Of a stretch of DNA of 64,000 nucleotides, positions 11,690 through 55,655 are shown piece after piece (the stretch's first letter is position 1; every line of letters begins with the position of its first letter). Source of the DNA: an uncultured Acidobacteriota bacterium (lineage in GTDB: Bacteria; Acidobacteriota; UBA6911); assembly GCA_963843575.1 (NCBI GenBank), contig CAWJKZ010000024.1, forward strand, positions 192,001-256,000. The letters are read 5' to 3'. The notes beneath the pieces are model-generated. The model was not told the origin of the DNA. It worked only from the letters and a program-made list of their open reading frames with translations, and searched no databases. The position numbers and the translations under genes are program-made.

Positions 11690-12553
11690 ATGCACCGGTT
11701 GACGGATCCATTCTGGGCATTCTGGGGCAGGATCCTGCTCAAGCCCGTGGCGTTGGTCGTGCTGAGCGCCTCGATGCTTTTCGAGGGCTATCACCTCCTC
11801 GCCCCGTCCGGGGACAGCCTCGGCGGCATCCGCCGCGATCTCGCCGAACAGGTCTGCGGCAAGGCCGTCGACGAGCTGCCGAAGATGAACGGCGTCCCGT
11901 CCCTCGCGGTTCTCAACCTCGCCGGCGACGACCAGGGGCTCGTCACCGAAATCCTGCGCGCGCGGCTCGAAGCTTCCGGCGAGTTCCGCCTGATGGAGCC
12001 CGGCTTTTTCAGGAAGCTCCTGCGCGAATTCGGCAAGGAGGAAGCGCCCGTCTCGCGTCTCGCCGACGCGGTCGACATGGCCCGCAAGCTCGGGGTCGAC
12101 CTGGTCCTCTTCGGCGAACTCCCGGAATTCAAGGCCTCGGCCGACCGTGCCGCGATCCGGCTCGAGCTGCGGATGGCCGAGCGCGCGACAGGCCAGGCTT
12201 TGTTCGCGCGCAGCTACTCGGAGAGCGTGGGCAGCGGCCCGGGTCGTTTCAGCTGGCGCGCGCGCATGGCGGGGAGCGCCAAGGGGCGCAGGATATTCAT
12301 CTGGGTCGCGTTCACCCTGCTGCTCCCACTCCTGACCGTCCCCTTGATCCGCCGCATCATCTCGGTCGAATCGAATCTCGTCAACCTCGTCCTGCTCGTG
12401 GCCTACACGGCCGTCGACCTGGCGCTCGCGTTCTTCCTGACGGGCTTCTGGATTCCCGGGATCTGGACCGCGGTCGTGCTGCTGCTCGCGCTCGCGGCGA
12501 GCGCTCTCTACAACTACGTGATTGCTTCGTTTATCGAAGAGATGAGTCACTGA
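11690..12553 (+). CDS. Membrane protein: N-terminal TM, CsgG/TolB-N/FlgO-like alpha-beta domain, 3-4 C-terminal TMs
   Basis: 'SLAVLNL...LVTEILRARLEASGEFRLME...DMARKLGVDLVLFGEL...LRMAERATGQAL' pattern, followed by hydrophobic helices; first gene of the cluster. Confidence 0.6.
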   Translation: MHRLTDPFWAFWGRILLKPVALVVLSASMLFEGYHLLAPSGDSLGGIRRDLAEQVCGKAVDELPKMNGVPSLAVLNLAGDDQGLVTEILRARLEASGEFRLMEPGFFRKLLREFGKEEAPVSRLADAVDMARKLGVDLVLFGELPEFKASADRAAIRLELRMAERATGQALFARSYSESVGSGPGRFSWRARMAGSAKGRRIFIWVAFTLLLPLLTVPLIRRIISVESNLVNLVLLVAYTAVDLALAFFLTGFWIPGIWTAVVLLLALAASALYNYVIASFIEEMSH

Positions 12554-12563
12554 GGTAACCGAT

Positions 12564-13160
12564 ATGGCTCTGTTCAAATCCAAAGAAGAGCGGCGCATCG
12601 AAAGGAACATCCAGATCCGCAAGGCCGTGACCCAGATCCGCCGCCAGATCGCCTCCAACGGCAAACACGAGAGCGATTACATCGCCAAGGCGAAGAGAGC
12701 CCGGAAAATGGGCTGGGACAACCAGTACGAGTTCCTCAAGAAGGCGATCAAGAAGACCGCCACGATCAAGGTCCGGCTCGAGCGGCAGCTGCTGGCGCTG
12801 GAATCCGCCGTGCAGATCAAGGAGCAGGCCGAAGGGCACCACGAGTTCGCGAGCGCGATGAACGCGCTGTCGAAGTCGATCGCCGAGGTGTTCGGCGCCA
12901 CCGACATGGCCAAGACCCAGGTCAATTTCGAGAAGGCGATGTCGCAGGCCGAGAGCCTGGAAGAGCGGATGGACACGTTCCTCGAGATGACGTCCGAGTC
13001 GATGTTCGACTACGAGGGGAGTTCCGAGCGCGAGCTCGTCAGCGACGGCGACATCGACAAGATGCTCGAGGAGGAAGTGCAGCACGAGGAACGCGAAGGG
13101 ATAGACGAAGAAATCGACAAGGACATTTCGGCCATCCAGAAGGAAATCGAGAAAAAATAA
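12564..13160 (+). CDS. ESCRT-III (Snf7/Vps2/Did2/CdvB)-like protein 1
   Basis: 198 aa, all-helical pattern, MALFKS N-terminus, K/R-rich first half with 'AKAKRARKMG' turn, 'FASAMNALSKSI...FEKAMSQAESLEERMD', acidic tail ending in amphipathic 'DEEIDKDISAIQK'. RBS GAGG upstream; adjacent to a Vps4-like ATPase. Confidence 0.75.
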   Translation: MALFKSKEERRIERNIQIRKAVTQIRRQIASNGKHESDYIAKAKRARKMGWDNQYEFLKKAIKKTATIKVRLERQLLALESAVQIKEQAEGHHEFASAMNALSKSIAEVFGATDMAKTQVNFEKAMSQAESLEERMDTFLEMTSESMFDYEGSSERELVSDGDIDKMLEEEVQHEEREGIDEEIDKDISAIQKEIEKK

Positions 13161-13162
13161 TG

Positions 13163-13199
13163 TGGAGTGCGCGCCTCGGCGCCTCGACGCCGCACTCCA
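13163..13199. repeat. Short REP-like family A palindrome between ESCRT-III-1 and Vps4-A
   Basis: TGGAGTGCG...CGCACTCCA inverted arms. Confidence 0.7.
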
Positions 13200-13203
13200 G
13201 AAG

Positions 13204-14310
13204 ATGAATACGATGCAGTTCTTCCTTGATCAGTACGAGAAGAACAAGGACCAGGGGCTCGACTATCTCAAGGTCGGGGACTACGAGCAGGCAGGTTACC
13301 ACCTGCTCCTCGCGGCGAAGTACCTGCTGACCGCGGCGCAGCGGTCGGAGCCGGGGCTCAAGAAAGTGAGACACGCGAAGGCGTTGAAGCTGCGCGAGCT
13401 CGCGCTCTCGGCGAAGGGTCGGACTCCCCCCAGGAAGGCTGCGGGGGCCAGGGACCAGGACGGCGATCTGACGCCCGAGAGCAAGTGGATTGTCTCCGAG
13501 AAGCCGAACGTCCGGTTCGACCAGGTCGCCGGCCTCGCGGACGTCAAGGAAGCGATCAACCTGCGCGTCATCCTGCCGTTTCGCAATCCCGACGCCGCGA
13601 AGCGCTTCAGGAAGAAGGCGGGGGGCGGCATCCTCCTGTACGGACCGCCGGGCACCGGCAAGACGATGATCGGCAAAGCGGTCGCGACCGAGCTCGACGC
13701 GCAGTTCCTCAACGTCAAGAGCTCGAACATCATGTCGCCGTGGGTCGGGGTGGCCGAGCAGAACCTCGCGCGGCTGTTCGAGGTGGCGCGCCGGTATCCC
13801 ATCTCGGTGATTTTCCTGGATGAGACCGAGGCCCTGGTCGGGAAGCGCGGCAGCCAGTCGACCGTGATGAACCGCGTAGTCCCGGAGTTCCTCTCGCAGG
13901 TCGACGGACTCGACCCGAAGGTGAACTGCATCCTGCTGATGGGGGCCACGAACCGGCCGTGGGACATGGACGAGGCGGCCCTGCGCACCGGGCGCTTCGG
14001 CGAGATGATCTACGTGGGTCTCCCCGATGCCGCGGCCCGCGAACAGATACTCCATTTCCACCTGGACGGCATCCCGATGGCGTCCGACATCGACCTCCCT
14101 GCCCTGGCGGCGAGGCTGGACGGCTTCAGCGGAGCGGACATCGCGGGTGTCTGCATCAAAGCGACCGATTTCCCCTTTCAGCGGCAGATCCGCTCGGGGG
14201 CCGACACGATTCTGACCAAGGAGGACCTGGACCGGGCCGCTGCGGAAGTCGTCCCGTCGGTGACCCAGGCCATGCTGGAGCGCTATCGCAAGTTCGCGGA
14301 GGCGAGGTAA
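13204..14310 (+). CDS. Vps4/CdvC-like single-ring AAA+ ATPase A with N-terminal MIT-like domain
   Basis: MIT-like helices (GDYEQAGYHLLLAAKYLL...HAKALKLRELA); IVSEKPNVRFDQVAGL, GILLYGPPGTGKT, pore loop SPWVG, Walker B IFLDE, GATNRPW, Vps4_C-like end (LTKEDLDRAAAEVVPSVTQAMLERYRKF). Start moved to ATG 13204 because GTG 13162 is inside the repeat. Confidence 0.85.
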   Translation: MNTMQFFLDQYEKNKDQGLDYLKVGDYEQAGYHLLLAAKYLLTAAQRSEPGLKKVRHAKALKLRELALSAKGRTPPRKAAGARDQDGDLTPESKWIVSEKPNVRFDQVAGLADVKEAINLRVILPFRNPDAAKRFRKKAGGGILLYGPPGTGKTMIGKAVATELDAQFLNVKSSNIMSPWVGVAEQNLARLFEVARRYPISVIFLDETEALVGKRGSQSTVMNRVVPEFLSQVDGLDPKVNCILLMGATNRPWDMDEAALRTGRFGEMIYVGLPDAAAREQILHFHLDGIPMASDIDLPALAARLDGFSGADIAGVCIKATDFPFQRQIRSGADTILTKEDLDRAAAEVVPSVTQAMLERYRKFAEAR

Positions 14311-14334
14311 CGCCGCCCGCTTTGGAGTCGACCG

Positions 14335-15030
14335 ATGAGTGACCCCGTAAGCCACAGCCTCCCTGCCGCGCCGCGCTGGGGCGAACTCTTCCTCGAGCGG
14401 TTCGACCTGAACGTGCGCGCCTGCGGCGCCGTCGTGCACCCGGCCGACGGGACCGTGCTCAAGGTCAATCCGAAGATGCTGGGGCAAACTTTCCGCCGGG
14501 ACTTCGGCGAAGTGGTGCTCTTCTCGCTCTCCGCCGGCCTCATCGCCAGATCCCGCCTGCACCTGGCCGCCATCCGGCTGAACGACGGCGTCCCCGAGCC
14601 GGAACTCCTGCGCCGCGTGGGCGGTCCCGACGGACTCGATTTCGTGGGCGATCATTTTTACTCCGTCGGGTTGTTCGCGCCCGGCGGCTGGCCCGAAGAG
14701 TGGAAGGCACAGGCGGCGCTGCGCGGCAACGCGCTGTTCTACCTGGTCGAGAAGGGGGACGGAACCGGCTGGGGCGTGTTCGGCCCGGAAAACCCTCTCC
14801 TGCGGCTGTTCGACCCCGAGACGACCATCGAGAAGGCGGCCCGGGCGGCGCAGGCCCTCGCGGGGCACCCACGGCTCGTGATGCCGGGGGACCAGGTCGA
14901 AGCCGGCGCGTTCGCCGCGGAACTGCGCCTGGACGCGGAGGCCCTGGAGAAAGCGCTGGCAGCTTCGCAGGGGCGCTTCCACAAGATGGAGTACAAGGGC
15001 AAGACCTACATACAGCGGTCAATCCGGTAG
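14335..15030 (+). CDS. Hypothetical protein with probable C-terminal winged-helix domain
   Basis: 231 aa; GGAG upstream; C-terminal helix-strand-helix-helix-hairpin pattern (EKAARAAQAL...VEAGAFAAELRLDAEALEKALAAS..RFHKMEYKGKTYIQR). Confidence 0.55.
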   Translation: MSDPVSHSLPAAPRWGELFLERFDLNVRACGAVVHPADGTVLKVNPKMLGQTFRRDFGEVVLFSLSAGLIARSRLHLAAIRLNDGVPEPELLRRVGGPDGLDFVGDHFYSVGLFAPGGWPEEWKAQAALRGNALFYLVEKGDGTGWGVFGPENPLLRLFDPETTIEKAARAAQALAGHPRLVMPGDQVEAGAFAAELRLDAEALEKALAASQGRFHKMEYKGKTYIQRSIR

Positions 15031-15038
15031 GAGGAATC

Positions 15039-15650
15039 ATGTCCGTGATGGAGAAACTCAGAGCGCTGTTCCAGAGCGAGAGTCTGCCGGACGAGACGCG
15101 CCAGCTTTACAGCAGGGCGTCCACGCCGCACGAACTCATCAAGGAGCTGGAGGGGTTGCGGGGCCGCAACGAGGTCGACCTGCGCGAGAACGAGCAGGAG
15201 CTGATCGGGCTCGAGAAGGCGGTCCTGCTGGAGGAGGACGCCGTGCGCCGGGGAGGGATGACCCCGACCGAAGAGACGATCGTGCTGCGCCGGATCGAAC
15301 GGCTGCAAAAGCAGCGGGAGAACCTCGACCGGCAGGTCTCGATCTACAACGAAAACGTCAACCTGCACCTCAACCTCATCGCCAGAATCCAGGAGATGGA
15401 GGCGATGCGCTCCCGCGGGGTCGCCGAGGACCAGATCGACCGGCTCGTCGAGGATGTCGAGGGGCACGTCGAAGAGTACAAACGGGTGAGCATTGCGGCC
15501 GAAGGGGGCTCGACCATGGGTTCGGCCATCGACCACTCGGCCGAGCGCCGCCGCCTGGACGAGATCAAGAACCGCATCCTGGCCAGGGACAGGGAACGTC
15601 CACGCGCCGCGGACGAGGAACCCGTCGAACCCCCCAAAGACCTGGAGTGA
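15039..15650 (+). CDS. ESCRT-III-like coiled-coil protein 2
   Basis: Strong RBS GGAGGA then ATG 15039 (the track start at 14700 overlaps the previous gene). 203 aa, amphipathic 'MEKLRALF' start, long helical hairpin, tail 'LDEIKNRILAR...EEPVEPPKDLE'. Confidence 0.6.
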   Translation: MSVMEKLRALFQSESLPDETRQLYSRASTPHELIKELEGLRGRNEVDLRENEQELIGLEKAVLLEEDAVRRGGMTPTEETIVLRRIERLQKQRENLDRQVSIYNENVNLHLNLIARIQEMEAMRSRGVAEDQIDRLVEDVEGHVEEYKRVSIAAEGGSTMGSAIDHSAERRRLDEIKNRILARDRERPRAADEEPVEPPKDLE

Positions 15651-15686
15651 TCCCAGCTATCACGATTCATCAAAGGAGATCGAATC

Positions 15687-16307
15687 ATGAACCTGATCGA
15701 AAAGCTGTTCAGCAAATCGCCCACCGCGGCGGACCTCCGGGTCCAGCTCAAGGAGATCGAAAGGGACCAGAAGAAGAAGCGGCGCGACCTCGACATCGTC
15801 GAGCGCAACAAGCAGCAGAAGGTCAAGGAAGCCGTCGCCGCAAAGAAGAATGGCAAACAGGAGGTGCTCCGGGACATCTTCCGGGAGATGCGGCAGATGG
15901 AGATCGAGAACGGCTATGCAAACGCCGACCTGCGCCGCCTGTCGCTGGCCAAGACCGCGCTGACGTCCTTCCTGCGCAAGATGGAGATGCTCGAGCGGAA
16001 GAAGGACCGGAAGAGCCTGCAGAACCTGATCGTGCGGTTCAAAGACAGCTCGATCCAGAAGGCGATCGACACGGCGGAAGTCGACGACGACACCTTCAAC
16101 GACATGCTGGAAGAGATCCTCGGCGAAGAGGAGTTGTCGGTCACGCAGGGGAGGGTGAAAGAAGATACCGGGTTTGCCGACTTCGACCGGGCGATCGGCG
16201 AGATGGCGAAGGCCGAGGAGGCCGGTTCGGACGAAGAGGATCTCAACAAGTTCCAGGAAGAGATCGACAAGGCCGTCCGGGCGGAAAAAGTGCGGGACGA
16301 GGCGTAG
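15687..16307 (+). CDS. ESCRT-III (Vps2/Vps24-like) protein 3
   Basis: RBS AAGGAG; 206 aa; 'MNLIEKLFSKSPTAADLRVQLKEIERDQKKKRRDL..ERNKQQKVKEAVAAKKNGKQEVLRDIFREM' follows the Vps2/Vps24 N-terminal pattern; basic N-half, acidic C-half. Confidence 0.75.
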   Translation: MNLIEKLFSKSPTAADLRVQLKEIERDQKKKRRDLDIVERNKQQKVKEAVAAKKNGKQEVLRDIFREMRQMEIENGYANADLRRLSLAKTALTSFLRKMEMLERKKDRKSLQNLIVRFKDSSIQKAIDTAEVDDDTFNDMLEEILGEEELSVTQGRVKEDTGFADFDRAIGEMAKAEEAGSDEEDLNKFQEEIDKAVRAEKVRDEA

Positions 16308-16331
16308 CAGGGGTTCTGGAGGCCTGATCAC

Positions 16332-17552
16332 ATGGACGTCGACCTGAGCGGGCCGCTGAAAGTGTCGCTGGACAAGACACTGGCCGAGGCGCGGGAGCTC
16401 GAAGGGCAGAACAAGGGCCAGGAGGCGGCCGTCGCCTACCTGAAGGCGTCGAAGCTGATGAAGAGCTACGCCGACTACGCGCTCACCCGCGACGACCAGG
16501 TGCGGAGGCGCCAGAAGGCGCGGCAGTACCTGGAGTGGGCCGAGGCGCTCAAGGCCGGCAAGCGGCGGGTGGCCGCAGCCGCCGCGCCCGTGCGGGCTGC
16601 ACCGGTTGCCGGCGGCGTCAAGGAGGCCGCCGCCGGGGACGAGGAACAGTACTCGCGCGACATCGCGTCGCTGATCCACCGCAGCAAGGTGACGTGGGAC
16701 AAGATCGGCGGGCTCGAGGAGACCAAGCGTGAGATCAAGTTCACGTACGGGCTCGCGCTGGCCCGGAAACCGGAAGGGATGAAGCTCGCGGGGTGGCGCC
16801 GCATGCTCTTCTACGGGCCGCCCGGGACCGGCAAGACGTTGCTGGCGGCGGCTACCAGCAACGGGCTGGGCGCGACCTTCTTCAACGTCAAGGCGAGCAA
16901 CCTCCTGTCGAAGTACTTCGGCGAGTCCTCGAAGCTGATCACGGAGCTGTTCGACGCCGCCCGGAGCGAGGCCGACGAAGGCTTCGCCGTCATTTTCATC
17001 GACGAGGTCGAGTCGCTCTGCCTGCCGCGCGGCGACGGCTCGGAGAGCGGCGCCGAGAGGCGCGTCCTGTCGACGATCCTGTCGGAGCTCGACGGGCTGG
17101 CGGACAAGGGTGAGGACCGGTTCGTCCTGACCATCGCGGCGACCAACGCGCCGTGGGACCTCGACGACGCGGTGCTCAGCCGCTTTCAGAAGAGAATTTA
17201 CATCCCGCTGCCCGACGCCGAAGCGCGCAAGTCGATACTCGAGATCCTGCTGCTCAAGGCGGGCCACACGCTGGACTACCCGCTCGGGGAGGTCATCGAG
17301 CACTCGGAGTGGTTCAGCGGGCGCGACCTGGAACGGCTGGCGAACCAGGCGGTCAACGTCATGGTCGAGGAACTCAACAGCCAGATTCCGCGCTGCGTCG
17401 ACGCCGGGCGGGAGTCGATCGAGGGCTACCAGCTCAAGGTGCGCCCGCTCGGCAAGAGCGATTTCGACGAGGCGTTCCGGCGCATACGGGTGGACGTGGA
17501 CCGGCTGAAAAAGCTGGAGACGCGCTTTCGCGAGTTCGCAGAGAGCAATTGA
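16332..17552 (+). CDS. Vps4/CdvC-like AAA+ ATPase B with clear MIT domain
   Basis: MIT signature (AEARELE...EAAVAYLKASKLM...RQKARQYLEWAEALK); VTWDKIGGLE, GPPGTGKT, FFNVKASNLLSKYFGESSKL, IFIDEVESL, ESGAERR, AATNAPWDLD, RFQKRIYIPLPD. Confidence 0.9.
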   Translation: MDVDLSGPLKVSLDKTLAEARELEGQNKGQEAAVAYLKASKLMKSYADYALTRDDQVRRRQKARQYLEWAEALKAGKRRVAAAAAPVRAAPVAGGVKEAAAGDEEQYSRDIASLIHRSKVTWDKIGGLEETKREIKFTYGLALARKPEGMKLAGWRRMLFYGPPGTGKTLLAAATSNGLGATFFNVKASNLLSKYFGESSKLITELFDAARSEADEGFAVIFIDEVESLCLPRGDGSESGAERRVLSTILSELDGLADKGEDRFVLTIAATNAPWDLDDAVLSRFQKRIYIPLPDAEARKSILEILLLKAGHTLDYPLGEVIEHSEWFSGRDLERLANQAVNVMVEELNSQIPRCVDAGRESIEGYQLKVRPLGKSDFDEAFRRIRVDVDRLKKLETRFREFAESN

Positions 17553-17570
17553 GGACTTCCGGGGAATCCG

Positions 17571-18542
17571 ATGGCGGTTTGCGGTCAGTGTAAACAGGAC
17601 GGCGGGGAAAAGAAGTTCTGCACCAACTGCGGCGCGCCCATGGTTGAGCCGGCCGCGCCCGCTCAGAAAGCGCAGGCGTCCGGGGTGCGGCTTGGGGACA
17701 TCGGGTTCGTGAAGGGGAACATCACCGACTCGAGCACGGTCACGACGACCACCACCAACGTCGGGCAGATCAACATCGGGATGCCTGCCGGCACGTCCCC
17801 CGCGGCCCCGTGTTGCCCCATCTGCGGCGAGTACCCGGAGCTGCGCGAGAGCTTCCGCTGCATGGCGTGCGGGCGCGACTACATCTGCAAGAGGCACCGC
17901 CACCCCGAGCAAAGGATCTGCACCGCGTGCGTCCGCCGGCGCGAGATGGTGTGGGTGCCGCCGGGCGGATCGTTCGACGGGTTCTGGATGGACCGTGCGA
18001 AGGTGACCTGCGAGGCCTACCGGCGATTCCTGGTGGCCAATCCCGGCTGGCAGAAAGGGAGCGTCGATGGGAAGCGCCACGACGGCTACTATCTCAGGGA
18101 TTGGAACGGGAACGACTACCCGGCCGGGAAGGGCGGCCAGCCGGTGGTCTACGTCAGCTGGTACGCGGCCCGCGCCTGCGCGGAGTGGTCCGGGAAGCGG
18201 CTCCCGACCGAGGCCGAGTGGGAGTACGGCTGCCGCGCGGGAACGAACACGGCCTACTGGTGGGGGGACGAGTTCGCCCTGGGGCGGGCCGCCGAAGCCA
18301 ACCCTTGGGGACTGCGCGGCATGTCGGGGTGCCTGTGGGAGTGGACGTCATCGCCCTTCAGCGACGACCCCGCGGATGCGGGGCCGCGCAGCTGCCGCGG
18401 CGGCTCGAAATGGGGGGATGCGGCCGAAGCCCGCTCCTCCGCGCGCAGCGGCCGCGCCCCGAGAGGCTGCAGCGTGATGGTCGGTTTCCGGTGCGTCGAG
18501 AGCGGAGACTGTCCAACGACGAAGCCACTCGACCAGATGTGA
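17571..18542 (+). CDS. Zinc-ribbon + AN1-like zinc finger + FGE-sulfatase (SUMF1)-like domain protein
   Basis: CGQC..FCTNCG; CPIC..FRCMACGRDYICKRHRHPE..C; PVVYVSW, KRLPTEAEWEY, NPWGL..MSG..WEW, RGGS, GFRCV. Confidence 0.8.
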   Translation: MAVCGQCKQDGGEKKFCTNCGAPMVEPAAPAQKAQASGVRLGDIGFVKGNITDSSTVTTTTTNVGQINIGMPAGTSPAAPCCPICGEYPELRESFRCMACGRDYICKRHRHPEQRICTACVRRREMVWVPPGGSFDGFWMDRAKVTCEAYRRFLVANPGWQKGSVDGKRHDGYYLRDWNGNDYPAGKGGQPVVYVSWYAARACAEWSGKRLPTEAEWEYGCRAGTNTAYWWGDEFALGRAAEANPWGLRGMSGCLWEWTSSPFSDDPADAGPRSCRGGSKWGDAAEARSSARSGRAPRGCSVMVGFRCVESGDCPTTKPLDQM

Positions 18543-18544
18543 TT

Positions 18545-18572
18545 CAAGTGGGTCTGGGCTTCAGCCCGGACG
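18545..18572. repeat. REP-like palindrome, family B (AAGTGG-GTC[C/T]GGGCT-TC-AGCCCGGAC)
   Basis: One mismatch to the copies at 35443, 42609 and 44479. Confidence 0.75.
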
Positions 18573-18672
18573 TCTTTTGATCTGAGCTATACAGCTAAGC
18601 ATGCGCTGTATAGCGACCGACGAACCAGCGTCCCACTTGAGGACTTTCGCTTGAGGCACTGAGGTTTGCTAG

Positions 18673-20181
18673 ATGATGATGGATGCCGCGGACCAATTGA
18701 AGGAGCTGCTTCTCAAACTCAAGCAGAACCTCCCGCTCACGATCGCGACCACGATCGTAATGAGCATCCTCGTCATATCATGGAAAAAACTCCTTCATTT
18801 TGCGAAACGCAGACTCGGTTTCGAAGAGCCTCCCAAGGAAGTCCTGAAACCCTCGCTCCCTGAAGGCGATTTTGCCCGTCTGTCGACGCTCGACAAGTTC
18901 CGTTCCGGCTTCTCGGTGCCCTTCGGCTGGCGCGGCGCCGTCGTCGACGCCGGCGTGGTTCAGCGTGAGCTCGGCCCCGGCCGCTACCGCCGGCGCGCCG
19001 TCGCGAAGATAATCGCCTCCCTGCGGCTCGGCGAAAACGCGCACGTCGTCTTCTGGCGGGACCAGGAGTTCCCCGTAGTGCTCTATCTCCGTGATCTCTT
19101 CGCCTCCGACCACCAGCCCATGCAGCTCGAGATCCGGAGCACGGCCCGGGTGCGGCCCGATCGTCTGACGCACTCCTCCCCGGAGGAGATCAACCGCGAC
19201 CCGGCCTGCTGGGCGGAGGATCTCTCGGCCGGCATCGCGGTTGCCGCCCGCCAGTGGGTGGCCGGTATGGCGGCAGAGGCGCCGTATCACAACGCGGCCA
19301 AGCTCTCCGAGTGGTGCGACGTGGCTGCCGGCTGGATCCGGTCCGCCCTCGAGCGCTCGACTTTCGAACTGGTGCGAGTTACCGGGTTCCGGTTGTTCAG
19401 CCCGGTGCTCGACAAGGTCTTCGCCGAATACGGCGAGGCGGCGCTGGAGCACGAGGCCGCGCGCCGCGAGGTGGAGCGCAACAAGGTGCGCGGGGCGCTG
19501 CGCCAGGCCGTGCTCGCCGGCCAACTGGAGGAGGTCCGGGACCAGAGCGAGCACGAACAGGCGGTGCGCGCCATCGAGCAGGAAAAAGAGCTCCGCGAGA
19601 AAGCCCTGCGGCAGGAACTGGCGCAGGCCGAACTCACGGAACTGGAAGACAAACTGAGACTCTGGAAGAAGAAGCAGGACCTGTTGCTCCAGACGCTCGA
19701 CCTGTCGGGGCAGGACTCCGCCCGGCAGTTTGATGCCCCCGACTCGCCGTTCTCCGCCCACGAGCGCGAACAGATCCGGGCAGTGCTGCAGAGTCAAAGG
19801 GCGATGTCGACGCAACCCGAGGAAGTGCTCCCGCTGCTCGCCCGCAGCACAGAGATCCAGTGGGCCGCGTTCGACCCGCTTGCCCGGATCCGCGGCCCGC
19901 ACACGCTGCGCGTCGGCGAGGGGTGGCGGTTCTTCGACGGGGTGAGCCTGTGGAGAATCGTGCTGACCCGCATCGACACGCGTCGTAACGGGTTCTTGTG
20001 GCAGCGGGAGACGCCGTCGCGCGCGTATTTCGAAGTGCGCGGCACGCCCGACGGCCGGCGCTACGAGCAGGTTGTCGAACTGAACAAACACTTCCGGCTG
20101 AGCGCCGGCCCCCACGAGATGAGTGTCGACTTCATCGGCGGCAGCGCGAGCCGGATTTCACTCCAGGTAGGCCAGGCCTGA
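18673..20181 (+). CDS. Membrane-anchored SPFH/Band-7-like protein with coiled coil and C-terminal beta domain
   Basis: N-terminal TM (LTIATTIVMSILVISW); SPFH-like 'FSVPFGWRGAVVDAGVVQRELGPGRY...RDLFASDHQPMQLEI'; E/R/A-rich coiled coil. Confidence 0.65.
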   Translation: MMMDAADQLKELLLKLKQNLPLTIATTIVMSILVISWKKLLHFAKRRLGFEEPPKEVLKPSLPEGDFARLSTLDKFRSGFSVPFGWRGAVVDAGVVQRELGPGRYRRRAVAKIIASLRLGENAHVVFWRDQEFPVVLYLRDLFASDHQPMQLEIRSTARVRPDRLTHSSPEEINRDPACWAEDLSAGIAVAARQWVAGMAAEAPYHNAAKLSEWCDVAAGWIRSALERSTFELVRVTGFRLFSPVLDKVFAEYGEAALEHEAARREVERNKVRGALRQAVLAGQLEEVRDQSEHEQAVRAIEQEKELREKALRQELAQAELTELEDKLRLWKKKQDLLLQTLDLSGQDSARQFDAPDSPFSAHEREQIRAVLQSQRAMSTQPEEVLPLLARSTEIQWAAFDPLARIRGPHTLRVGEGWRFFDGVSLWRIVLTRIDTRRNGFLWQRETPSRAYFEVRGTPDGRRYEQVVELNKHFRLSAGPHEMSVDFIGGSASRISLQVGQA

Positions 20182-20282
20182 CGGATTTTTGAAAATTCGA
20201 GATTCTTCGAGTCTTGGAGCCTTCGAGGTGGGATTGGAATCCCCCTCGACGACCATTTCACCAGACGCATCGGAGGCACGCC

Positions 20283-22343
20283 ATGTTCCAGGTCGAATGC
20301 CCTAAATGTCAGGAGAAAAGCAAGTCCGGTTCGCGTTATTGCGGCAACTGCGGCGAACGCCTGCCGGGGTCGGAGATCAAGTGCGGCAACTGCGGTGCCG
20401 TCGTCGCGGGCGACAGGAAGTTCTGCGGGAACTGCGGCAAGCCCCTGGCCGAGAGCGAATCCCCGCTGCTGACCGGCAACCGCTGGGCGCGGCGCACCGA
20501 CGATTTCGCGACCAAGGTCGAGATCGACGACGTCGAAGGCTTCTTCAAGAAAGGGTTGATCGTCGAGGCGGGCACCAGGGCCATCTTCTTCGTCAACGGC
20601 GCGTACTCCGGCATCCTCGATCCCGGCAAATACGACATGGGCGGACTGCTTCAGCGCATCAAGAACGTCTTCAGCTCGAAGACGACCACCGCGGTCCTCG
20701 TCGATGCGGGAGACGCCGAACTCCAGTTCTCGCTCACCGACCTTCCGACGAAAGATCCTATCCGCCTTGCCGCCGAGTGCAGGATCGTCGTCCAGATGGA
20801 CAACCCCACCCAGTTTTTCGAAAACATGATGAAGGGCCGGCAGAACTATCCGCTCTCGCAGCTGAAGGGCTTCCTCGAGGAGGAACTGCGCAACTGCCTG
20901 CTCGAGTTCGTCGGCGCCAGGTCCGTCCAGGAACTGTCGACCAACCTCGCATTCAAGCAGCAGATGGAGCAGGGGATCGCGCAGCACCTCGCCAGGACGT
21001 TCGACCGGAAGGGGCTGTCGTTCATCCAGGCGCGCGTCTTCAACTTCCGGCACCCGCGCATGAACGCGCTGACCAGCAAGATGGAGGAGTACTGGTTGAA
21101 CGCCGAGGATCTCAAGGCCCGGCTGGCCGGACAGGACTCCACGGTGGGGCTGGAGCGGCGTCTGCTCGACCAGGAGACCGCCAAGGCGATCATGCAGCTC
21201 GAAGTCTACGAAGACCGGGCGCGGGTGCGCGACCGGATGCGCAAGGCGGTCGCGAGCGATCAGATGAACGAGATCACCAGCGCGGCCGAGATGGAGAAAT
21301 TCCTCCAGGGGATGGACAAGGAAAAGCTCCTGCGCGCCGACGAGATGCGTGACCTCGCCCAGACCTTCGCCGAGAAGGGCGAAGATCACGACGTCGCCCG
21401 CCGTCACGTGATCCAACGGCTGAGGGTCGAGCAGGAGATGGACCTCGCCCGGGCGGCGCTCGTGGGCAAGATCGGACTGCAGCGCACGGCCACCGATTCC
21501 ATCAGGGCCGAGGAGATGGCCCAGCTCGAGCACGAGCTCGTGGCGCAGCGCAAGGAAGTCGAACAGCGGCAGGCGCAGGAATGGGCGCTCGTCAAACAGC
21601 AGGTGGAGGCGCGGCGCCTGCAGACCGAGATGGACCTCGACCTGGACAGGCAGAGGAAGCTCTCCGATATCGAACTCGAGGAGAAAGGGGACCAGGCGGA
21701 CGTGCGCAGCGCCCTGGATGCCTTGAGAATCGTCAAAGAGCAGAAGGCCATGCGGAAGGAAGAAGCCGACGCCGACCTGGAGCGCCGGTTGAAAGAGGAG
21801 GCGGTGCGGCACCAGCAGGAGCTCGAGAGGGTCGACAAGCTCTCGACGCTTTCCACCGAGGCGCTGATCGCGCTCGGGCCCGCGGACCGGGCGCCTATTC
21901 TCGCAGAACTGCAGCGGTCGGAAAAGCTGAAGGGTTATTCGGCGGACCAGATCCTGGCGATGGCGGCCGAGAAAAACCCGGAGGTGGCGAAGGCATTCCA
22001 GGAGAAGTACCGGAACGCTTCGGCCGCAGACGTCGAGAAGGCCTACGAGCGGATGCTGGGGATGAAGGAGAGGAGCGAAACCGACTTCCACGCGTTCGCG
22101 GACAAGGCCATGCAGAGGATGCAGGAGATGTACAACCGCGGCATGGACACGCAGCGCGACACGAGCATGGCGGCGGCCCGGTCGGGCCAGCCCGAGACGA
22201 CCGTGATCACGCCCGGCTCCGGAGTCCTCCAGAGCAGCGGCGGGCAGCCCGTCCGCGAGGTGCGGGTGATGGTCTGCCCCGAGTGTCACCAGAAGGTCGC
22301 CGAAGGGAACAAGTTCTGCGACAACTGCGGTCACAAGTTCTGA
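20283..22343 (+). CDS. Double zinc ribbon + SPFH/Band-7 + long coiled coil + zinc ribbon protein
   Basis: RBS GGAGG, ATG 20283. Four N-terminal CxxC motifs; 'LIVEAGTRAIFFVNGAYSGILDPGKYD...LPTKDPIRL'; about 400 aa of coiled coil; C-terminal CPEC..FCDNCG. Confidence 0.8.
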   Translation: MFQVECPKCQEKSKSGSRYCGNCGERLPGSEIKCGNCGAVVAGDRKFCGNCGKPLAESESPLLTGNRWARRTDDFATKVEIDDVEGFFKKGLIVEAGTRAIFFVNGAYSGILDPGKYDMGGLLQRIKNVFSSKTTTAVLVDAGDAELQFSLTDLPTKDPIRLAAECRIVVQMDNPTQFFENMMKGRQNYPLSQLKGFLEEELRNCLLEFVGARSVQELSTNLAFKQQMEQGIAQHLARTFDRKGLSFIQARVFNFRHPRMNALTSKMEEYWLNAEDLKARLAGQDSTVGLERRLLDQETAKAIMQLEVYEDRARVRDRMRKAVASDQMNEITSAAEMEKFLQGMDKEKLLRADEMRDLAQTFAEKGEDHDVARRHVIQRLRVEQEMDLARAALVGKIGLQRTATDSIRAEEMAQLEHELVAQRKEVEQRQAQEWALVKQQVEARRLQTEMDLDLDRQRKLSDIELEEKGDQADVRSALDALRIVKEQKAMRKEEADADLERRLKEEAVRHQQELERVDKLSTLSTEALIALGPADRAPILAELQRSEKLKGYSADQILAMAAEKNPEVAKAFQEKYRNASAADVEKAYERMLGMKERSETDFHAFADKAMQRMQEMYNRGMDTQRDTSMAAARSGQPETTVITPGSGVLQSSGGQPVREVRVMVCPECHQKVAEGNKFCDNCGHKF

Positions 22344-22347
22344 GCGG

Positions 22348-22374
22348 AAAGCGGCGCCGAGGCGCCGCACTCCA
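22348..22374. repeat. REP-like family A single arm
   Basis: AAAGCGGCGCCGAGGCGCCGCACTCCA. Confidence 0.65.
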
Positions 22375-22386
22375 TAGGGGGCAGCC

Positions 22387-23751
22387 ATGGCTAGTTGGGT
22401 GTGTGGGAAGTGCAATACCGAGAATCGGGCCGAGGGGAACTTCTGCACGTCGTGCGGCGCGTCGCGTCGCGCTCAGGCGCCCCCCGCCCCGGCCGGCGCA
22501 GCGGACCAGGCGTCGAGCATCCTGGACAAGATCCGCGAGTCGCGGGCAAGCTCGTTCAAACACAGCCGGGCCTCGCTCGACCGTTTCTCGTCGGAGGTGG
22601 GGAAGCTCCCGGAGCTGGAGCTGGGGTTGCCCGACATCGGGCAGCTGCTCAAAACCGGGACGCCCGGCGCGGCGGGTGCTTCGGCAGGTGCGTCGCGCGC
22701 TCCTGCGATCGCCCGGGTCACGACCCGCGACCTGCAGGTGAAACACAATGCCCACCCGCGCCTGAACTACGCGATGGCGCACTGCGGGCTGCCGCTGATC
22801 CCGACGCTGGAGATCCGCAACAACGCGCGCGAGCCGGCGCAGGACGTATTGGTCAAGGCGTGGGTCGCGACCGACTACGGCGAACCGTGGCAGAAGACCA
22901 TCCCATCGATTGCGCCTGGGGAGGCGTACGTCGAGAAGGACATCTTCGTGCCGCTGCAGAAATCCCGGCTGCAGCAGGTCCGGGAGGCGGAACGGGCCAA
23001 CCTCAGGATCGACGTTTTCACCGAGGGCGAGGTGCAGGTGTCGGAGACCTTCCCGCTCGATGTGCTCGCGTACAACGAGTGGTACTACAGCGCGTACTTC
23101 CCTCAGACGGTCGCGAGCTTCATTCAGCCCAATTCGCCGGCCATCGAAAGGATCGTCTCGCTGGTGCGCGACCGCCTGAAGCGCGAGTACCGCGACACCG
23201 CGCTGGACGGCTATCAGTCCGACGACCCGAAAAAGATCCTGGAACGCCTCGAGGCGTTCTTCCTCGTCCTGCAGAAGGACCTGCAGATCACCTACATCAA
23301 CCCGCCGCCCAGCTTCGAAGGGGCCGAAACCCTCCCCGACGGCACCATGACGGTGTCGCAGAAGGTTTTTTTCCCCGAGCAGATCCTGGAGCACCGCCGC
23401 GGCACGTGCCTCGACCTGGCCCTCATGTGCGCCGCGTGCGTCGAACGTATGGGGCTGCACCCATTGTGGTTCATGATCCGCGGGCACGCGTTCTTCGGGA
23501 CGTGGCTGTACCAGAAGGCGCTCAAAGAGCCGGTCGTCACCGAACACGCGTTCGTGCAGAAACTGCTGACCGAGGGACTGTGGCTGCCGCTGAACTCGAC
23601 GACCTTCGCGCTCTCCCGCCCGATGCAATTCACGGACTGCGTCGCGGAGGCAACTTACTGTCTCAAGGATCCGGCACCGTTCATCTGCGCCGTCGACGTG
23701 CAGTCGGCACGGATGGGCGGCATCAAACCTATCCCCCCGGTGGTGGGATAG
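22387..23751 (+). CDS. RanBP2-type zinc finger + transglutaminase-like (Cys-His) domain protein
   Basis: WVCGKCNTENRAEGNFCTSC fits W-x-C-x2-C-x3-N-x6-C-x2-C; YINPPPSFE...SQKV; GTCLDLALMCAACVE; GHAFFGTW; LPLNST. Confidence 0.75.
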   Translation: MASWVCGKCNTENRAEGNFCTSCGASRRAQAPPAPAGAADQASSILDKIRESRASSFKHSRASLDRFSSEVGKLPELELGLPDIGQLLKTGTPGAAGASAGASRAPAIARVTTRDLQVKHNAHPRLNYAMAHCGLPLIPTLEIRNNAREPAQDVLVKAWVATDYGEPWQKTIPSIAPGEAYVEKDIFVPLQKSRLQQVREAERANLRIDVFTEGEVQVSETFPLDVLAYNEWYYSAYFPQTVASFIQPNSPAIERIVSLVRDRLKREYRDTALDGYQSDDPKKILERLEAFFLVLQKDLQITYINPPPSFEGAETLPDGTMTVSQKVFFPEQILEHRRGTCLDLALMCAACVERMGLHPLWFMIRGHAFFGTWLYQKALKEPVVTEHAFVQKLLTEGLWLPLNSTTFALSRPMQFTDCVAEATYCLKDPAPFICAVDVQSARMGGIKPIPPVVG

Positions 23752-23788
23752 GCAAGTACCGCAGGCTTTTCGATTGAGGTGAGCTGTC

Positions 23789-25444
23789 ATGACCGAGACG
23801 ACTCGCTATTGCCCGAATTGCGGAGAACCGTGCGGCTCCGAAGACCGCTTCTGCATGACCTGCAGGACAGAGTTGCGCGCCACAACAAATCCCCGTCCGG
23901 TGACCGTTTCCGGCACCGGGACTCCCTCCGGCACGGGCCATGCGGCCCGGTCGCCGATGGCCGACCCGCTCGGCGCGGCCCAGACCGAACTGGGGCTGCC
24001 GCTGAACACGGTCCTGCTCAACCGTTACCGCATCTCCAAGATGCTGGGCGCCGGCGGCATGGGTTGCGTCTACATGGCCGAGGATGAAAAACTCGGGATC
24101 CCCGTCGCCATCAAGGTTCTGCGCGACGTGCTCAGGCAGGATCCCGGGTCGGTGAGGCGACTGATCACCGAGGCGAAGGCCTCCATCCTGCTGTCGCACC
24201 CGAACATCGTCCGGCTGCACAATTTCGAGGACGCCGAGACGACGAAGTTCCTCGTCATGGAATTCGTCCAGGGCGAGACGCTGGCCGACAAGATCGCCCG
24301 GGAGGGAAAACTCGCGGAGGACGTCGTCAGGCGCATCGCCGTCGAGGTCTGCAAAGGGCTGGAGCACGCTCATTCCAAGAGGGTGATTCACCGCGACATG
24401 AAACCCGGGAACATCCTCCTCGGCAAGGACGGCTCGGTGAAGGTCGCAGATTTCGGCATTGCGCGGCTGTGCCGCGACTCGGTGTCGCGCCTGACGTCGC
24501 AGCACGACTCGGGGACGCTGATCTACATGTCCCCGGAGCAGCTCGACGGCGACAGCGGGGAATCGACCGACCTGTACTCGCTCGGGGCGGTGCTCTACGA
24601 GATGTTGTCCGGGGACCCGCCATTCGTTACGGGGGAAATCACGGCCCAGATCCGTCACAAGGTGCCGAAGGAGATACCCGGGGTCTCGGCGGAGATGAAT
24701 CGGATCGTCCTGAAGTGCCTGGAGAAGAAGCCGGAGAACCGGTTCGCCGGGTTGGCCCGGTTGCGCGAGACGTTGGAGGGCAAGGCCACGCAGACCGTCG
24801 GGACGCAGCCGGTCGGGCCGCCACCAGCGCAGCCGCCGGTCACGCCAACGGTGCGGCCCACCGAGCCGGTGGTTGCCCCACCTCCTCCGCCGCAACCACA
24901 GCTACCCCGGCCGAAGAAGTCGCGGTTGACGTTGTCCGTGGTATTGGGGGGCGCCGCGCTCCTCCTGGCCCTGATGGTGTACCTGTCGATCTTCGGAGCG
25001 TATCACGGCTCGGAAATCGGCGGAGGGGGAGGAGGAGGGAGCGGCGACGACGGCGGCTCCGTGCCACCCCCGCCCCGCATCGACATCTCGGGAGACTGGG
25101 GTTACACGGTCACGTCACCCGACGGCAGGTCTGTCCGCGGCCAGCTGCAGATCGCCGACAAGGGAGGCGAGGTGCGGCTCTATGCCGAGGCCGCGTACTC
25201 GATGATGTGGACCGACGGGCGCTTCCACCAGTTCATCGAGCGCAGCAACTGGGCCGGCCAGCTTGTCGACCGCAACCTGCAGGCGCAGACCGTTCAGGGG
25301 ACCGTGCTGATGGACGGGGTGCCGGTCCCCCCGATCGGGTTGCCCTGGAGTTTGAACCTCTCGGTCTCCCCCGGCGAACGCTACATGCAGGGGACCGTAG
25401 GGAACGCGATCGGCGGGGTCGCCAGCCTGTCCGCGCAGCGGTGA
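23789..25444 (+). CDS. Zinc ribbon + Hanks-type Ser/Thr kinase + TM + extracytoplasmic beta domain
   Basis: CPNC..FCMTC; LGAGGMGCVY, VAIKVL, HPNIV, HRDMKPGN, DFG, GTLIYMSPEQ; Pro-rich linker; TM (LSVVLGGAALLLALMVYLSIFG); 'DISGDW' domain start. Confidence 0.92.
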   Translation: MTETTRYCPNCGEPCGSEDRFCMTCRTELRATTNPRPVTVSGTGTPSGTGHAARSPMADPLGAAQTELGLPLNTVLLNRYRISKMLGAGGMGCVYMAEDEKLGIPVAIKVLRDVLRQDPGSVRRLITEAKASILLSHPNIVRLHNFEDAETTKFLVMEFVQGETLADKIAREGKLAEDVVRRIAVEVCKGLEHAHSKRVIHRDMKPGNILLGKDGSVKVADFGIARLCRDSVSRLTSQHDSGTLIYMSPEQLDGDSGESTDLYSLGAVLYEMLSGDPPFVTGEITAQIRHKVPKEIPGVSAEMNRIVLKCLEKKPENRFAGLARLRETLEGKATQTVGTQPVGPPPAQPPVTPTVRPTEPVVAPPPPPQPQLPRPKKSRLTLSVVLGGAALLLALMVYLSIFGAYHGSEIGGGGGGGSGDDGGSVPPPPRIDISGDWGYTVTSPDGRSVRGQLQIADKGGEVRLYAEAAYSMMWTDGRFHQFIERSNWAGQLVDRNLQAQTVQGTVLMDGVPVPPIGLPWSLNLSVSPGERYMQGTVGNAIGGVASLSAQR

Positions 25445-25550: not shown

Positions 25551-25689
25551 GGGGAAAGTGGCGCCGGCCGTGGCCGCGGCCGGCGCCCGAAGCGAGCGGA
25601 GGAGAGCGGCGGCATGTTCGGCAGGGACTGACGCCCGCCAAATCCCTTGCCGGCCGCGCGCCGACGCTCCACTCACCCCATCCCAAAAT

Positions 25690-28600: not shown

Positions 28601-28984
28601 GAGTTCGGTCTTGGACCCTGCCGGCAGGGACTGCAGGACGCCGGAGAGGTACTCGAGCGTGCGGGTGCGCGCCCAGTAGATGTCGGTGCCGTCTTCGAAG
28701 ATGACGTAGACGAAGGAGTAGCCGAAGTCGGAGAAGCCGCGGACGGCCTTGACCTTGGGCGCGCCGAGCATGGCGGTGACGATCGGGTAGGTGACCTGGT
28801 CCTCGACGATGTCGGGGCTGCGGTCCCAGCGGGAGTAGACGATGACCTGGGTGTCGCTGAGGTCGGGGATGGCGTCGAGCGCGACGTTGTTCATCGACCA
28901 CCAGCCGTAGATGGCGGCTACGGCTACGAGGGTGAGGACGATGAGCCGGTTGCGCGCGGAGAAATCGATGATGCGCGAAATCAT
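25690..28984 (-). CDS. cusA: CusA/SilA-family heavy-metal RND efflux pump, frameshifted
   Basis: LDAIPDLSDTQVIV, LGPDATGLGW, ANIMSLGGIAIAIGAMVDASIVVVE; Met sites LFYMP, DPAPLSM, RIDMLSTG; KRIRPKFMT. Split over four track ORFs. Confidence 0.92.
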
Positions 28985-55284: not shown

Positions 55285-55360
55285 GCTGGCGTAGCTCAGT
55301 TGGTAGAGCAGCTGATTTGTAATCAGCGGGTCGGGGGTTCAAGTCCTCTCGCCAGCTCCA
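55285..55360 (+). tRNA. tRNA-Thr(TGT)
   Basis: Cloverleaf, anticodon loop TT-TGT-AA, GTTCAA T-loop, CCA end. Confidence 0.97.
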
Positions 55361-55549
55361 TGGACACGGCGGCGGGAACGGGCGGAATGACGACCCGGCG
55401 GGGCAGGCCGGGGGCGGGGCGGCGCAAGAATCAGTCTCCGACGACGGACAAGGCAACGGACGAAGTGTCCGGCTCACCTGCAAGCTCCCCATATCTCTCA
55501 GGCACGGCGCCGGGAGAAGGTCCCGATTCCAGGCTAGGCGACATATTCT

Positions 55550-55637
55550 GGACAGGTGGTCGAGCGGTTAATGGCACTGGGCTGTAAACCCAGCGACCTT
55601 CGGGTCTACGGAGGTTCGAATCCTCCCCTGTCCACCA
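55550..55637 (+). tRNA. tRNA-Tyr(GTA)
   Basis: CTGGG-CT-GTA-AA-CCCAG, long variable arm, CCA end. Confidence 0.97.
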
Positions 55638-55655
55638 TGTTATTGGAAGCTAAAA

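Follow-up and report, generated by a model that had tools for sequence, protein, structure and literature searches.

We analysed a stretch of 64,000 nucleotides from an uncultured Acidobacteriota bacterium (assembly GCA_963843575.1, contig CAWJKZ010000024.1), which is called the window in the following and corresponds to G000:C24:192001-256000 on a contig of ~520 kb. Region 11690-25444 of the window carries a cluster of 12 open reading frames (ORFs), named G1 to G12, all of which lie on the + strand with intergenic gaps of 1-130 bp. Judged from family-level comparisons and gene order, this locus probably encodes a bacterial membrane-remodelling machine of the ESCRT-III/Vps4 type (ESCRT, an acronym for the endosomal sorting complex that is required for transport). 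An earlier note, made from the letters of this DNA, had described 12 co-directional ORFs between a divergent gene on the left and a convergent gene on the right, and had proposed that they form an ESCRT-like system. The ORF layout and the flanking genes bear out this arrangement. Of the proposed system the core stands, namely a Snf7-type protein encoded beside AAA ATPases with Vps4_C and MIT-like parts in a conserved setting, while the details of the multiple paralogues hold in part. The genes of the cluster and its two neighbours are given below, with the source of each assignment in brackets.

10394-11548, - strand: left neighbour, divergent, Amidohydro_2 family protein of 384 amino acids (Pfam PF04909, 5.6e-21)
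11690-12553, + strand: G1, membrane protein of 287 amino acids (hydropathy scan)
12564-13160, + strand: G2 (E3a), Snf7-type, ESCRT-III-like protein of 198 amino acids (family profiles)
13162/13204-14310, + strand: G3 (AAA_A), MIT-like part, AAA domain and Vps4_C (Pfam AAA)
14335-15030, + strand: G4, globular protein of 231 amino acids without family match (profile-profile links only)
15039-15650, + strand: G5 (E3b), acidic, helical-looking protein of 203 amino acids, distant paralogue of G6 (hhalign)
15687-16307, + strand: G6 (E3c), ESCRT-III-like candidate of 206 amino acids (hhalign)
16332-17552, + strand: G7 (AAA_B), MIT-like part, AAA domain and Vps4_C-like end, 406 amino acids (Pfam AAA)
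17571-18542, + strand: G8, Cys-rich N-terminus and FGE-sulfatase domain (Pfam)
18673-20181, + strand: G9, N-terminal membrane anchor and divergent SPFH domain (hhalign, hydropathy)
20214/20283-22343, + strand: G10, double Zn ribbon, SPFH domain, long coiled coil and C-terminal Zn ribbon (Pfam)
22387-23751, + strand: G11, N-terminal Zn finger and a domain like the N-terminus of ProA (NCBIfam, Pfam)
23789-25444, + strand: G12, Zn ribbon, Ser/Thr kinase, one membrane segment and a C-terminal domain of ~150 amino acids (Pfam, hydropathy)
25673-28984, - strand: right neighbour, convergent, RND pump/transporter gene (ACR_tran, 9.6e-74)

The start of G3 lies probably at 13204-13213, and the ORF of G10 is open from position 20214. 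The standard libraries Pfam, NCBIfam and PADLOC were used for scanning. Pfam and NCBIfam gave only chance-level matches for G1, G2, G4, G5, G6 and G9, and PADLOC, applied to 10 of the 12 cluster proteins, gave only AAA-level matches (IetA, TRIP13).

The Snf7-type protein and the two ATPases

A search of 5.8 billion proteins revealed 197 relatives of G2. The G2 family profile (A1) comprises 26 relatives and was compared with the PDB, where 10 matches were listed at E ≤ 10. The six best of these were Snf7, CHMP3 and CHMP2A, with E-values of 0.0013-0.033. The Pfam model Snf7 (PF03357) was matched by 10 of the 26 family members (best E-value 1.8e-8), and PspA_IM30 (PF04012) by none of the 26 at E ≤ 0.01. 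By the PDB profile search and by Pfam, G2 is thus assigned at the family level to the Snf7-type proteins, in agreement with its earlier description as ESCRT-III-like. A basic N-terminal and an acidic C-terminal half is a charge asymmetry typical of ESCRT-III. G2 has a charge of +14 over residues 1-75 and of -18 over residues 126-198, and in the alignments both G2 and G6 show conserved acidic-hydrophobic helices at the C-terminus, where an ESCRT-III protein would carry the MIM that binds the MIT domain of the ATPase. The Snf7 model was also run on control genomes, Sulfolobus among them. None reached the cut-off, so the model is weak for prokaryotes.

A second Snf7-like match in the genome (contig C13, 19.8 bits) is a lone coiled-coil ORF of 236 amino acids with no cluster genes nearby and was rejected as a chance match. 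The only PspA_IM30-like match of the genome lies at G000:C14:575336-575647 on the - strand (locus L104, 31.5 bits). It covers model positions 2-103 of 220, contains one internal TGA and may represent a broken or truncated pspA gene.

G3 (368-382 amino acids) and G7 (406 amino acids) contain one AAA stretch each, with Pfam AAA matches of 3.3e-34 for G3, accompanied by AAA_lid_3, and 8.8e-36 for G7. The two proteins are 33% identical. To look for the Vps4_C domain (PF09336), 60 ATPases encoded in the window and in related loci were scanned over their C-terminal 75 residues. The domain was found in 48 of the 60 C-termini, in both ATPase families, with a best E-value of 8.7e-10. The copies in the window lie under the cut-off of 21.3 bits (G3, 19.3 bits, E 0.0011; G7, 12.2 bits) and orthologues lie above it. 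Among the NCBIfam models, CdvC is the best for G7 with 179 bits, followed by PAN (155) and CDC48 (154). These scores, like those of G3 with CDC48 and CdvC, are all far under the curated cut-offs.

The N-termini were compared as profiles. That of G7 (A10, 21 sequences) gave full-length matches to MIT domains over an E-value range of 0.0066-0.16, among them the MIT domain of Vps4B/SKD1 (0.0066, query residues 13-75), calpain-7 (0.027), Vps4B (0.034) and Vps4A (0.095). TPR repeat proteins outscore MIT for this profile only via summed partial matches. For the N-terminal profile of G3 (A11, 25 sequences) the top PDB match was 2mpk (E 0.001), which we take to be the MIT domain of an oomycete chitin synthase. 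Both N-termini are described as MIT-like and are candidates for MIT domains. In the arginine-finger region, judged by eye against motifs that we assume to be diagnostic, G7 resembles Vps4, katanin and spastin, and G3 resembles Cdc48 and PAN. Overall, we classify G3 and G7 as classic AAA ATPases of the single-domain kind, which begin with an MIT-like part and end in Vps4_C. Of their earlier designation as MIT-Vps4 ATPases, the one AAA domain and the Vps4_C part stand, while the MIT part is weak and seen in profiles only.

A FastTree phylogeny of the 60 ATPases, rooted at the midpoint, separates a G3 clade of 37 from a G7 clade of 23 sequences; 8 of 68 ATPases with a length outside 330-520 amino acids had been dropped. 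Within the G3 clade, 25 of the 37 genes are located directly after a G2-like gene (11 have another position and 1 is unplaced). The G7 clade shows the same pattern with a different partner, 21 of its 23 genes being located directly after a G6-like gene. Each ATPase lineage directly follows its own small helical-protein gene.

G5, G6 and the accessory proteins

The family of G6 has 396 representatives at 50% identity with E ≤ 0.001 among 1.84 billion sequences, 224 at 1e-10 and 50 at 1e-30. For hhalign, a family alignment of 109 sequences was used, together with 16 controls consisting of 1 reversed and 15 block-shuffled copies of the target. G6 matched the G2 family with a probability of 70.9% (E 3.8e-5, 118 collinear columns, score 36.0), and the controls reached scores of at most 18.9 and probabilities of at most 1.6%. 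The match to G5 was stronger, with 91.2% (E 9.8e-7, 145 columns, score 45.6) and controls of at most 20.0 in score and 2.3% in probability. The link between G6 and G2 depends on the depth of the alignment. It drops to 4% with smaller alignments, and neither G5 nor G6 was linked to the G2 family as a single sequence or small alignment. A conserved glycine between two long N-terminal segments aligns in both families (G56 of G6, G50 of G2), and a hidden Markov model (HMM) of G6 scores 106 of 110 real G2-family sequences above their reversals. The charge of G6 is +14 over residues 26-125 and -19 over residues 126-206. From these profile comparisons G6 is a probable divergent member of the ESCRT-III superfamily.

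G5 is linked only via G6 (91.2%) and via a fused form described below (97.8%), and is a possible divergent member of the same superfamily. The earlier note had counted three ESCRT-III-like proteins; of these G2 is retained, G6 by the profile-profile link only, and G5 only through G6. In the Protein Atlas, the named clusters nearest in features to a G5 homologue (P0252) are Snf7 (0.85) and PspA (0.83), which serves as a lead only. The structural neighbours of the Atlas model of another stored homologue (P0228) have TM values of at most 0.38 and are uninformative; feature matches point in the same direction as the profile links and are likewise treated only as leads. Relatives of G5 have a conserved Pro-rich tail whose last residues are LE; in the fused forms the C-terminus reads PE(L/P)G. 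Such a tail could be a candidate docking tail for the ATPase. In a set of close G6 relatives with 275-684 amino acids (P0308-P0320 and P0239), residues 1-190 make up the G6 domain and long extensions continue to the C-terminus; one of these long relatives has a precomputed match to PF24161.

G4, earlier read as a winged-helix protein, has no family match in Pfam or NCBIfam, and a divergent relative gave only GMT-wHTH at E 0.012. Its connections were found by hhalign. G4 matches c14, a protein of 279 amino acids from one of the architectures described in the next section, with 76% (E 2.3e-5), and c14 in turn matches c5_490 with 95% (E 3.1e-8). The latter is a protein of 490 amino acids from another architecture, which is G4-like in its N-terminal half. 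Its C-terminal half is G5-like (97.8%, E 7e-13, reversed control 0.2%, alignment A15). This natural fusion of a G4-like to a G5-like domain ties G4 to G5. In genome G419 the G4 domain forms the C-terminal part of an ORF of 905 amino acids (L111, 13021-15738, - strand). The N-terminal part of this ORF shows a Zn ribbon and, by eye, subtilase-like Asp/His/Ser motifs. An ORF of 236 amino acids with a Zn ribbon lies upstream of it.

The remaining proteins of the cluster were largely assigned by Pfam and hydropathy. G1, earlier called a membrane protein, indeed has five hydrophobic segments, of which one precedes and four follow a soluble domain of ~150 amino acids. Its family search gave nothing except CsgG at E 0.096, and relatives were found in 13 loci. 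G8 had been read as a fusion of Zn ribbon, AN1 and FGE. The FGE part is clear (FGE-sulfatase, PF03781, 4.9e-31), the Zn ribbon is weak (0.066) and AN1 is without a Pfam match. The position of G8 differs among the relatives.

For G9 and G10, the two SPFH assignments were confirmed in different ways. G9 has no Pfam match, and its SPFH domain was recognised by hhalign to the G10 family (97.5%, E 5.1e-12, 166 columns, reversed control 0.9%). Together with the hydrophobic segment at residues 19-37 this agrees with the predicted transmembrane SPFH protein. In G10, which was predicted to combine DZR, SPFH and a coiled coil, Pfam found Band_7 (3e-14), DZR (8.6e-14) and a C-terminal Zn_Ribbon_1 (6.4e-13), and 23 loci contain relatives. 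G12 is a kinase with a membrane segment, as expected (Pkinase, 1.4e-53; one hydrophobic segment at residues 378-396), and kinase relatives are present in 22 loci.

For G11, described earlier as a RanBP2 zinc finger joined to a transglutaminase, zinc-finger matches in Pfam are weak only (Zn_ribbon_RanBP, 0.0042). No transglutaminase family matched, and a transglutaminase-like Cys/His motif is seen by eye only. Residues 127-450 match positions 1-313 of the 1903 positions of the antiphage ProA model NF058533 in NCBIfam (E 1.1e-74), with 251.8 bits against a cut-off of 1500.

Conservation and architectures of the gene cluster

In one scan of named genomes, six loci with relatives were found. Most of the gene order is kept in L004, L005, L014 and L003, and the order G1-kinase-G4-G5-G6-G7 in L006, which belongs to a metagenome-assembled genome (MAG) of Bryobacterales. 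Two further genomes from the family of the window but from another genus, G419 and G405, carry the cluster in the order amidohydrolase / G1-G2-G3-insert-G4-G5-G6-G7-G9-G10-G11-kinase-kinase-FGE. A gap of ~2.7 kb separates G3 from G4 in L003, L005 and G405. The same gene set occurs in L004, L005, L014, G419 and G405, so that conservation of the genes as a set, which the earlier note had named as a check, extends to other Acidobacteriota genomes. G2 and the ATPases are accompanied by SPFH proteins, a G4-type protein and a membrane kinase. The system is rare and its spread patchy, with members of the G2 family turning up in 3 of the 401 genomes sampled from the phylum.

The divergent amidohydrolase gene beside G1 is part of the conserved picture (window, 10394-11548, - strand; L004, 4280-5410; L111/L112 in G419; L113, 10102-11238, in G405). 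Within the family the gene is itself rare, being detected in 3 of the 31 genomes sampled; in the two that do not contain the window it adjoins the cluster. This Amidohydro_2 gene may belong to the system. As its conservation goes together with that of the cluster, the gene may be a 13th component, or the two may have a promoter region in common. Promoter-like sites numbered 1 against 1.4 expected from shuffles, and terminator-like sites 14 against 11.2, neither being above expectation.

The genome that contains the window is a MAG with 88% completeness and 3% contamination. G419 is 100% complete and has the same gene order on a contig of 1.96 Mb in another genus, which largely rules out a chimeric contig, the refutation that the earlier note had considered. 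The G+C level over both cluster borders is 0.63-0.67. A tRNA block (Thr-Tyr-Gly-Thr ... Trp) is located at 55.3-57.4 kb of the window (55285-57373), and its layout is presumably that of the bacterial tuf/secE-nusG region. This block and the closest relatives, which are labelled as Acidobacteriota MAGs, support the bacterial host claimed before. At 56-58 kb the GC skew is strong, which is consistent with highly expressed genes at that place. Only four public DNA runs contain 5-7% of the sampled words of the stretch, and no RNA run was among those listed. Read pieces at 85% likeness, considering the best 32 of 1,728 records, were 151-752 letters long, and none of them spans a border of the cluster.

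Metagenome contigs extended the comparison. At least 596 contigs matched the search pattern, at least 105 of them encode a G2 relative, and 80 were kept. Phyla for these relatives were named by the Protein Atlas and are leads only. The loci fall into three architectures, with the following gene orders (x, other gene).

Type A: as in the window, or G5-G6-AAA-G2-AAA-kinase-SPFH-G1
Type B: SPFH-G4like-G5like-G6like-G6like-AAA-G2-x-AAA-x-TPR
Type C: x-kinase-x-(G4like fused to G5like)-G6like-G2-(HEPN/NTase)-AAA-SPFH-DeoC

The divergent core of the metagenome contigs consists of Snf7-like, G6-like, G4-like, AAA, SPFH and kinase genes. In a census of 14 loci with at least 6 kb on each side of the G2-like gene, G6-like genes were present in 10, G4-like genes, AAA genes and kinase genes in 9 each, SPFH genes in 7 and two AAA genes in 4. 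Gene calling was weighted by GC3 and is crude (G5 of the window itself was missed), so these counts are lower bounds. Upstream of the G2-like gene, 24 of 37 loci have the end of a G6-like gene at a distance of no more than 2.5 kb. The location of ESCRT-III genes near an ATPase gene is criterion (ii) of Makarova et al. (2024). In the present set 20 of 30 loci have the start of an AAA gene no more than 3.5 kb downstream of the G2-like gene, and by ATPase clade the neighbouring small helical gene is found in 25 of 37 and 21 of 23 cases.

Type C loci contain two inserted genes between the Snf7-like and the AAA gene, one matching NTP_transf_2 (1.3e-9) and one matching HEPN (1.7e-20). Such inserts occur in several divergent operons (L069, 10609-10995; L085, 11775-12272; other type C loci). 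The combination of HEPN and nucleotidyltransferase resembles a toxin-antitoxin pair inside the operon.

Proposed mechanism, competing explanations and known systems

A working model of the ESCRT-III/Vps4-type machine can be formulated as follows. G2, G6 and probably G5 would polymerise on the inner face of the cytoplasmic membrane via their basic N-terminal halves. G3 would extract G2 from the polymer, and G7 would extract G6 and G5; in each case the MIT-like domain of the ATPase would bind C-terminal tails that are acidic or rich in proline, and ATP would be used. The site may be marked by SPFH rings or cages which G9 and G10 build and which are anchored in the membrane. G4 may nucleate or target the polymer; in other versions of the operon it is joined to a G5-like domain. 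The G12 kinase could sense an envelope signal through its outer domain and switch assembly, and the Zn ribbons of G8, G10, G11 and G12 could dock accessory proteins onto one scaffold. By analogy with PspA and its SPFH partner and with archaeal ESCRT loci that include kinases and SPFH proteins, the most likely role would be the sealing or shedding of damaged membrane under envelope stress.

Several results weigh against this reading. G2 itself is insignificant against Snf7 (11.9 bits, E 0.5). The Snf7 and PspA models matched no member of the G5 and G6 families (0 of 109, 0 of 20 and 0 of 12, with Snf7 absent from all 109 members of the G6 family), and four PDB profile searches with G5 and G6, including divergent members and deep profiles, returned no ESCRT-III chain. 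G5 is not significantly linked to the G2 family by hhalign and is acidic throughout, without a basic N-terminal half. The HMM of G2, applied to the G6 family, scored the real above the reversed sequence in 57 of 109 cases and thus gave no separation. On the side of the ATPases, G3 scores slightly better with the NCBIfam model CDC48 (208 bits) than with CdvC (204 bits). Since the CdvC cut-off is 650 bits and G3 and G7 (204 and 179 bits) are both far below it, they are not CdvC equivalogs. Pfam MIT, a poor detector here, was found in only 2 of 46 N-terminal segments (best 0.03), compared with 7 of 46 for TPR_2, and G7 itself reaches 13.1 bits with Pfam MIT (E 0.68). Finally, about one third of the G2-like loci have no AAA gene nearby.

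One alternative is an anti-phage or conflict system, that is, a membrane-acting effector or repair module triggered by infection, whose mechanism may still be ESCRT-like. The kinase, the FGE protein, the ProA-like protein and the protease-bearing accessories would then be sensors or effectors. A patchy spread (3 of 401 genomes of the phylum for the G2 family, 3 of 31 of the family for the linked amidohydrolase) would be expected of such a system, but also fits accessory stress systems. G11 shares a domain with the Prometheus protein ProA (E 1.1e-74), which is a defence protein (PMC13700489; the sources given here by PMC number are cited from the portions available), but the match covers only the N-terminal 313 of 1903 model positions. 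The HEPN and nucleotidyltransferase genes within some operon versions, the fusion of the G4 domain to an ORF with subtilase-like motifs (by eye) in G419 and the accessory genes, which differ between versions, point in the same direction. The cluster itself encodes no nuclease, NADase or other usual effector, PADLOC recognised the 10 scanned proteins at the AAA level only (IetA, TRIP13), and the flanking genes, an amidohydrolase and an RND pump, are not defence genes. We regard a primary function in defence as unlikely.

The points raised above against G5, G6 and G3 would also suit a system for membrane-protein quality control. Here G3 and G7 would be Cdc48-like unfoldases that act on SPFH-caged membrane proteins, as FtsH does with HflK/C, and the helical proteins of 200 amino acids would be adaptors or coiled-coil linkers and not membrane-shaping polymers. 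G3 is best on CDC48 with 208 bits and has a Cdc48/PAN-like arginine-finger region (by eye, from a motif taken as diagnostic), two SPFH proteins are encoded in the cluster, no ESCRT-III model recognises G5 or G6, and a protease-like fusion occurs in one relative (G419). Such unfoldases do not account for the Snf7-like character of the G2 family in two independent libraries or for the Vps4_C domain in 48 of 60 ATPase ends. The N-termini give MIT-type matches and no double-psi-barrel N-domains, one AAA domain is present and not two, and the pairing of ATPase lineages with small helical genes is strictly one to one. This explanation is held to be quite improbable.

A chimeric contig or archaeal contamination, for which a MAG with 88% completeness and 3% contamination and the lack of any public run with more than 7% of the sampled words could be cited, is hardly credible given the same gene order including the left neighbour in another genus (G419, on 1.96 Mb in a 100% complete genome), in G405 and in L004, the even G+C at the borders (0.63-0.67) and the bacterial tRNA block in the same window.

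For the ESCRT-III/Vps4-type machine, a more far-reaching version can be put forward only tentatively, and we rather doubt it in full. In this version the cluster would represent a genuine ESCRT system of bacteria that extends across several of their phyla and has at least three architectures. The two Vps4-type ATPases would each recycle their own ESCRT-III-like subunit, and a G4 adaptor, SPFH cages and the kinase would control ATP-driven scission in vesicle budding or shedding. If this were true, the partnership of ESCRT-III and Vps4 would not be an archaeal invention. It would be as old as the split between bacteria and archaea or would have crossed domains as a whole module, and the ESCRT-III superfamily would gain a new branch in the G5/G6 family.

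Bacteria are described as having no clear Vps4 homologue and as tending to a single PspA-type ESCRT-III protein (PMC7615534, PMC7619361, in the parts consulted), and the combination of Vps4 and ESCRT-III is stated to be absent from bacteria (PMC10936438, PMC7619361 and PMC7615534, likewise in part). Snf7-type proteins were assigned to archaea and eukaryotes (Liu et al., 2021; PMC8281802, available portion). A survey of phage shock protein (PSP) systems, in the portion available, notes bacterial Snf7-clade genes beside AAA+ ATPases and Vps4-like ATPases transferred to bacteria, and proposes ATP-dependent membrane remodelling (PMC11237479). The association of Snf7 with AAA+ ATPases in bacteria as such is therefore not new, and the caution of the earlier note over sporadic bacterial Snf7-Vps4 operons was right as far as this part of the survey goes. 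In the examples of the survey, Snf7 is displaced by a TPR-6TM protein, or a two-AAA ATPase occurs with ABC transporter genes. The same portion makes no mention of two MIT-AAA paralogues, the G5/G6 family, a G4 partner, SPFH proteins or a kinase, which its supplementary tables may list. In the literature searched, no description was found of two MIT-like/Vps4_C paralogues, of the G5/G6 family, of the G4 partner and its fusion, or of the SPFH pair, the kinase and the three architectures; the supplements of PMC11237479 and PMC10936438 may list such loci.

An operon conserved in bacteria that combines a Snf7-type protein with two MIT-like/Vps4_C ATPases and archaeal-type partners would challenge the picture of bacteria without Vps4. 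It would offer a bacterial system for studying how AAA ATPases drive ESCRT-III remodelling and would make the old link between ESCRT-III, SPFH scaffold and kinase directly testable. It would also bear on the question whether the pair of ESCRT-III and Vps4 is older than the archaeal lineage or was spread by gene transfer. Independent of this, the locus defines unannotated families, namely G6 with its 396 representatives at 50% identity, G4 and G5.

Among the known systems, Prometheus is similar in one domain only. Residues 127-450 of G11 correspond to the first 313 positions of the ProA model, but ProA is a single protein of 1903 positions with helicase and nuclease parts (PMC13700489, in part), which G11 lacks. 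The bacterial PspA/Vipp1 (IM30) proteins share with the cluster the ESCRT-III superfamily, action at the membrane, which for the cluster is presumed, and an SPFH partner, including PspA with YdjI (PMC10936438, PMC7619361, portions available). In contrast to them, G2 is of the Snf7 type, and none of its family members matched PspA_IM30 at E ≤ 0.01. PspA systems have no MIT-Vps4-type ATPase. PspF belongs to a different AAA+ clade according to the available part of PMC7619361.

The crenarchaeal CdvABC system likewise combines a Snf7-type protein with a dedicated single-domain AAA ATPase, and CdvC is the best NCBIfam model for G7 and lies within 5 bits of the best for G3. The scores of 179 and 204 bits compare with a cut-off of 650, no CdvA was found, and a role in cell division is not indicated.

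The closest likeness in composition is seen to two groups of archaeal ESCRT loci, 'Main' and 'Meth_adaptin' (Makarova et al., 2024; PMC10936438, in the portion available). These also have one or more ESCRT-III genes beside an ATPase of the Vps4 type (MIT-AAA in archaea, with an MIT-like N-terminus here), a globular-domain partner protein (with a winged helix at its end in archaea), a membrane Ser/Thr kinase and a protein consisting of SPFH, coiled coil and Zn ribbon. The cluster described here differs from them by its bacterial host, by G5 and G6 as a separate family invisible to Snf7 models, and by the lack of an adaptin-like, arCOG08177 or phosphatase gene among those seen. It adds FGE, ProA-like and amidohydrolase genes, and it has two paralogous ATPases, each of which is tied to its own small helical gene.

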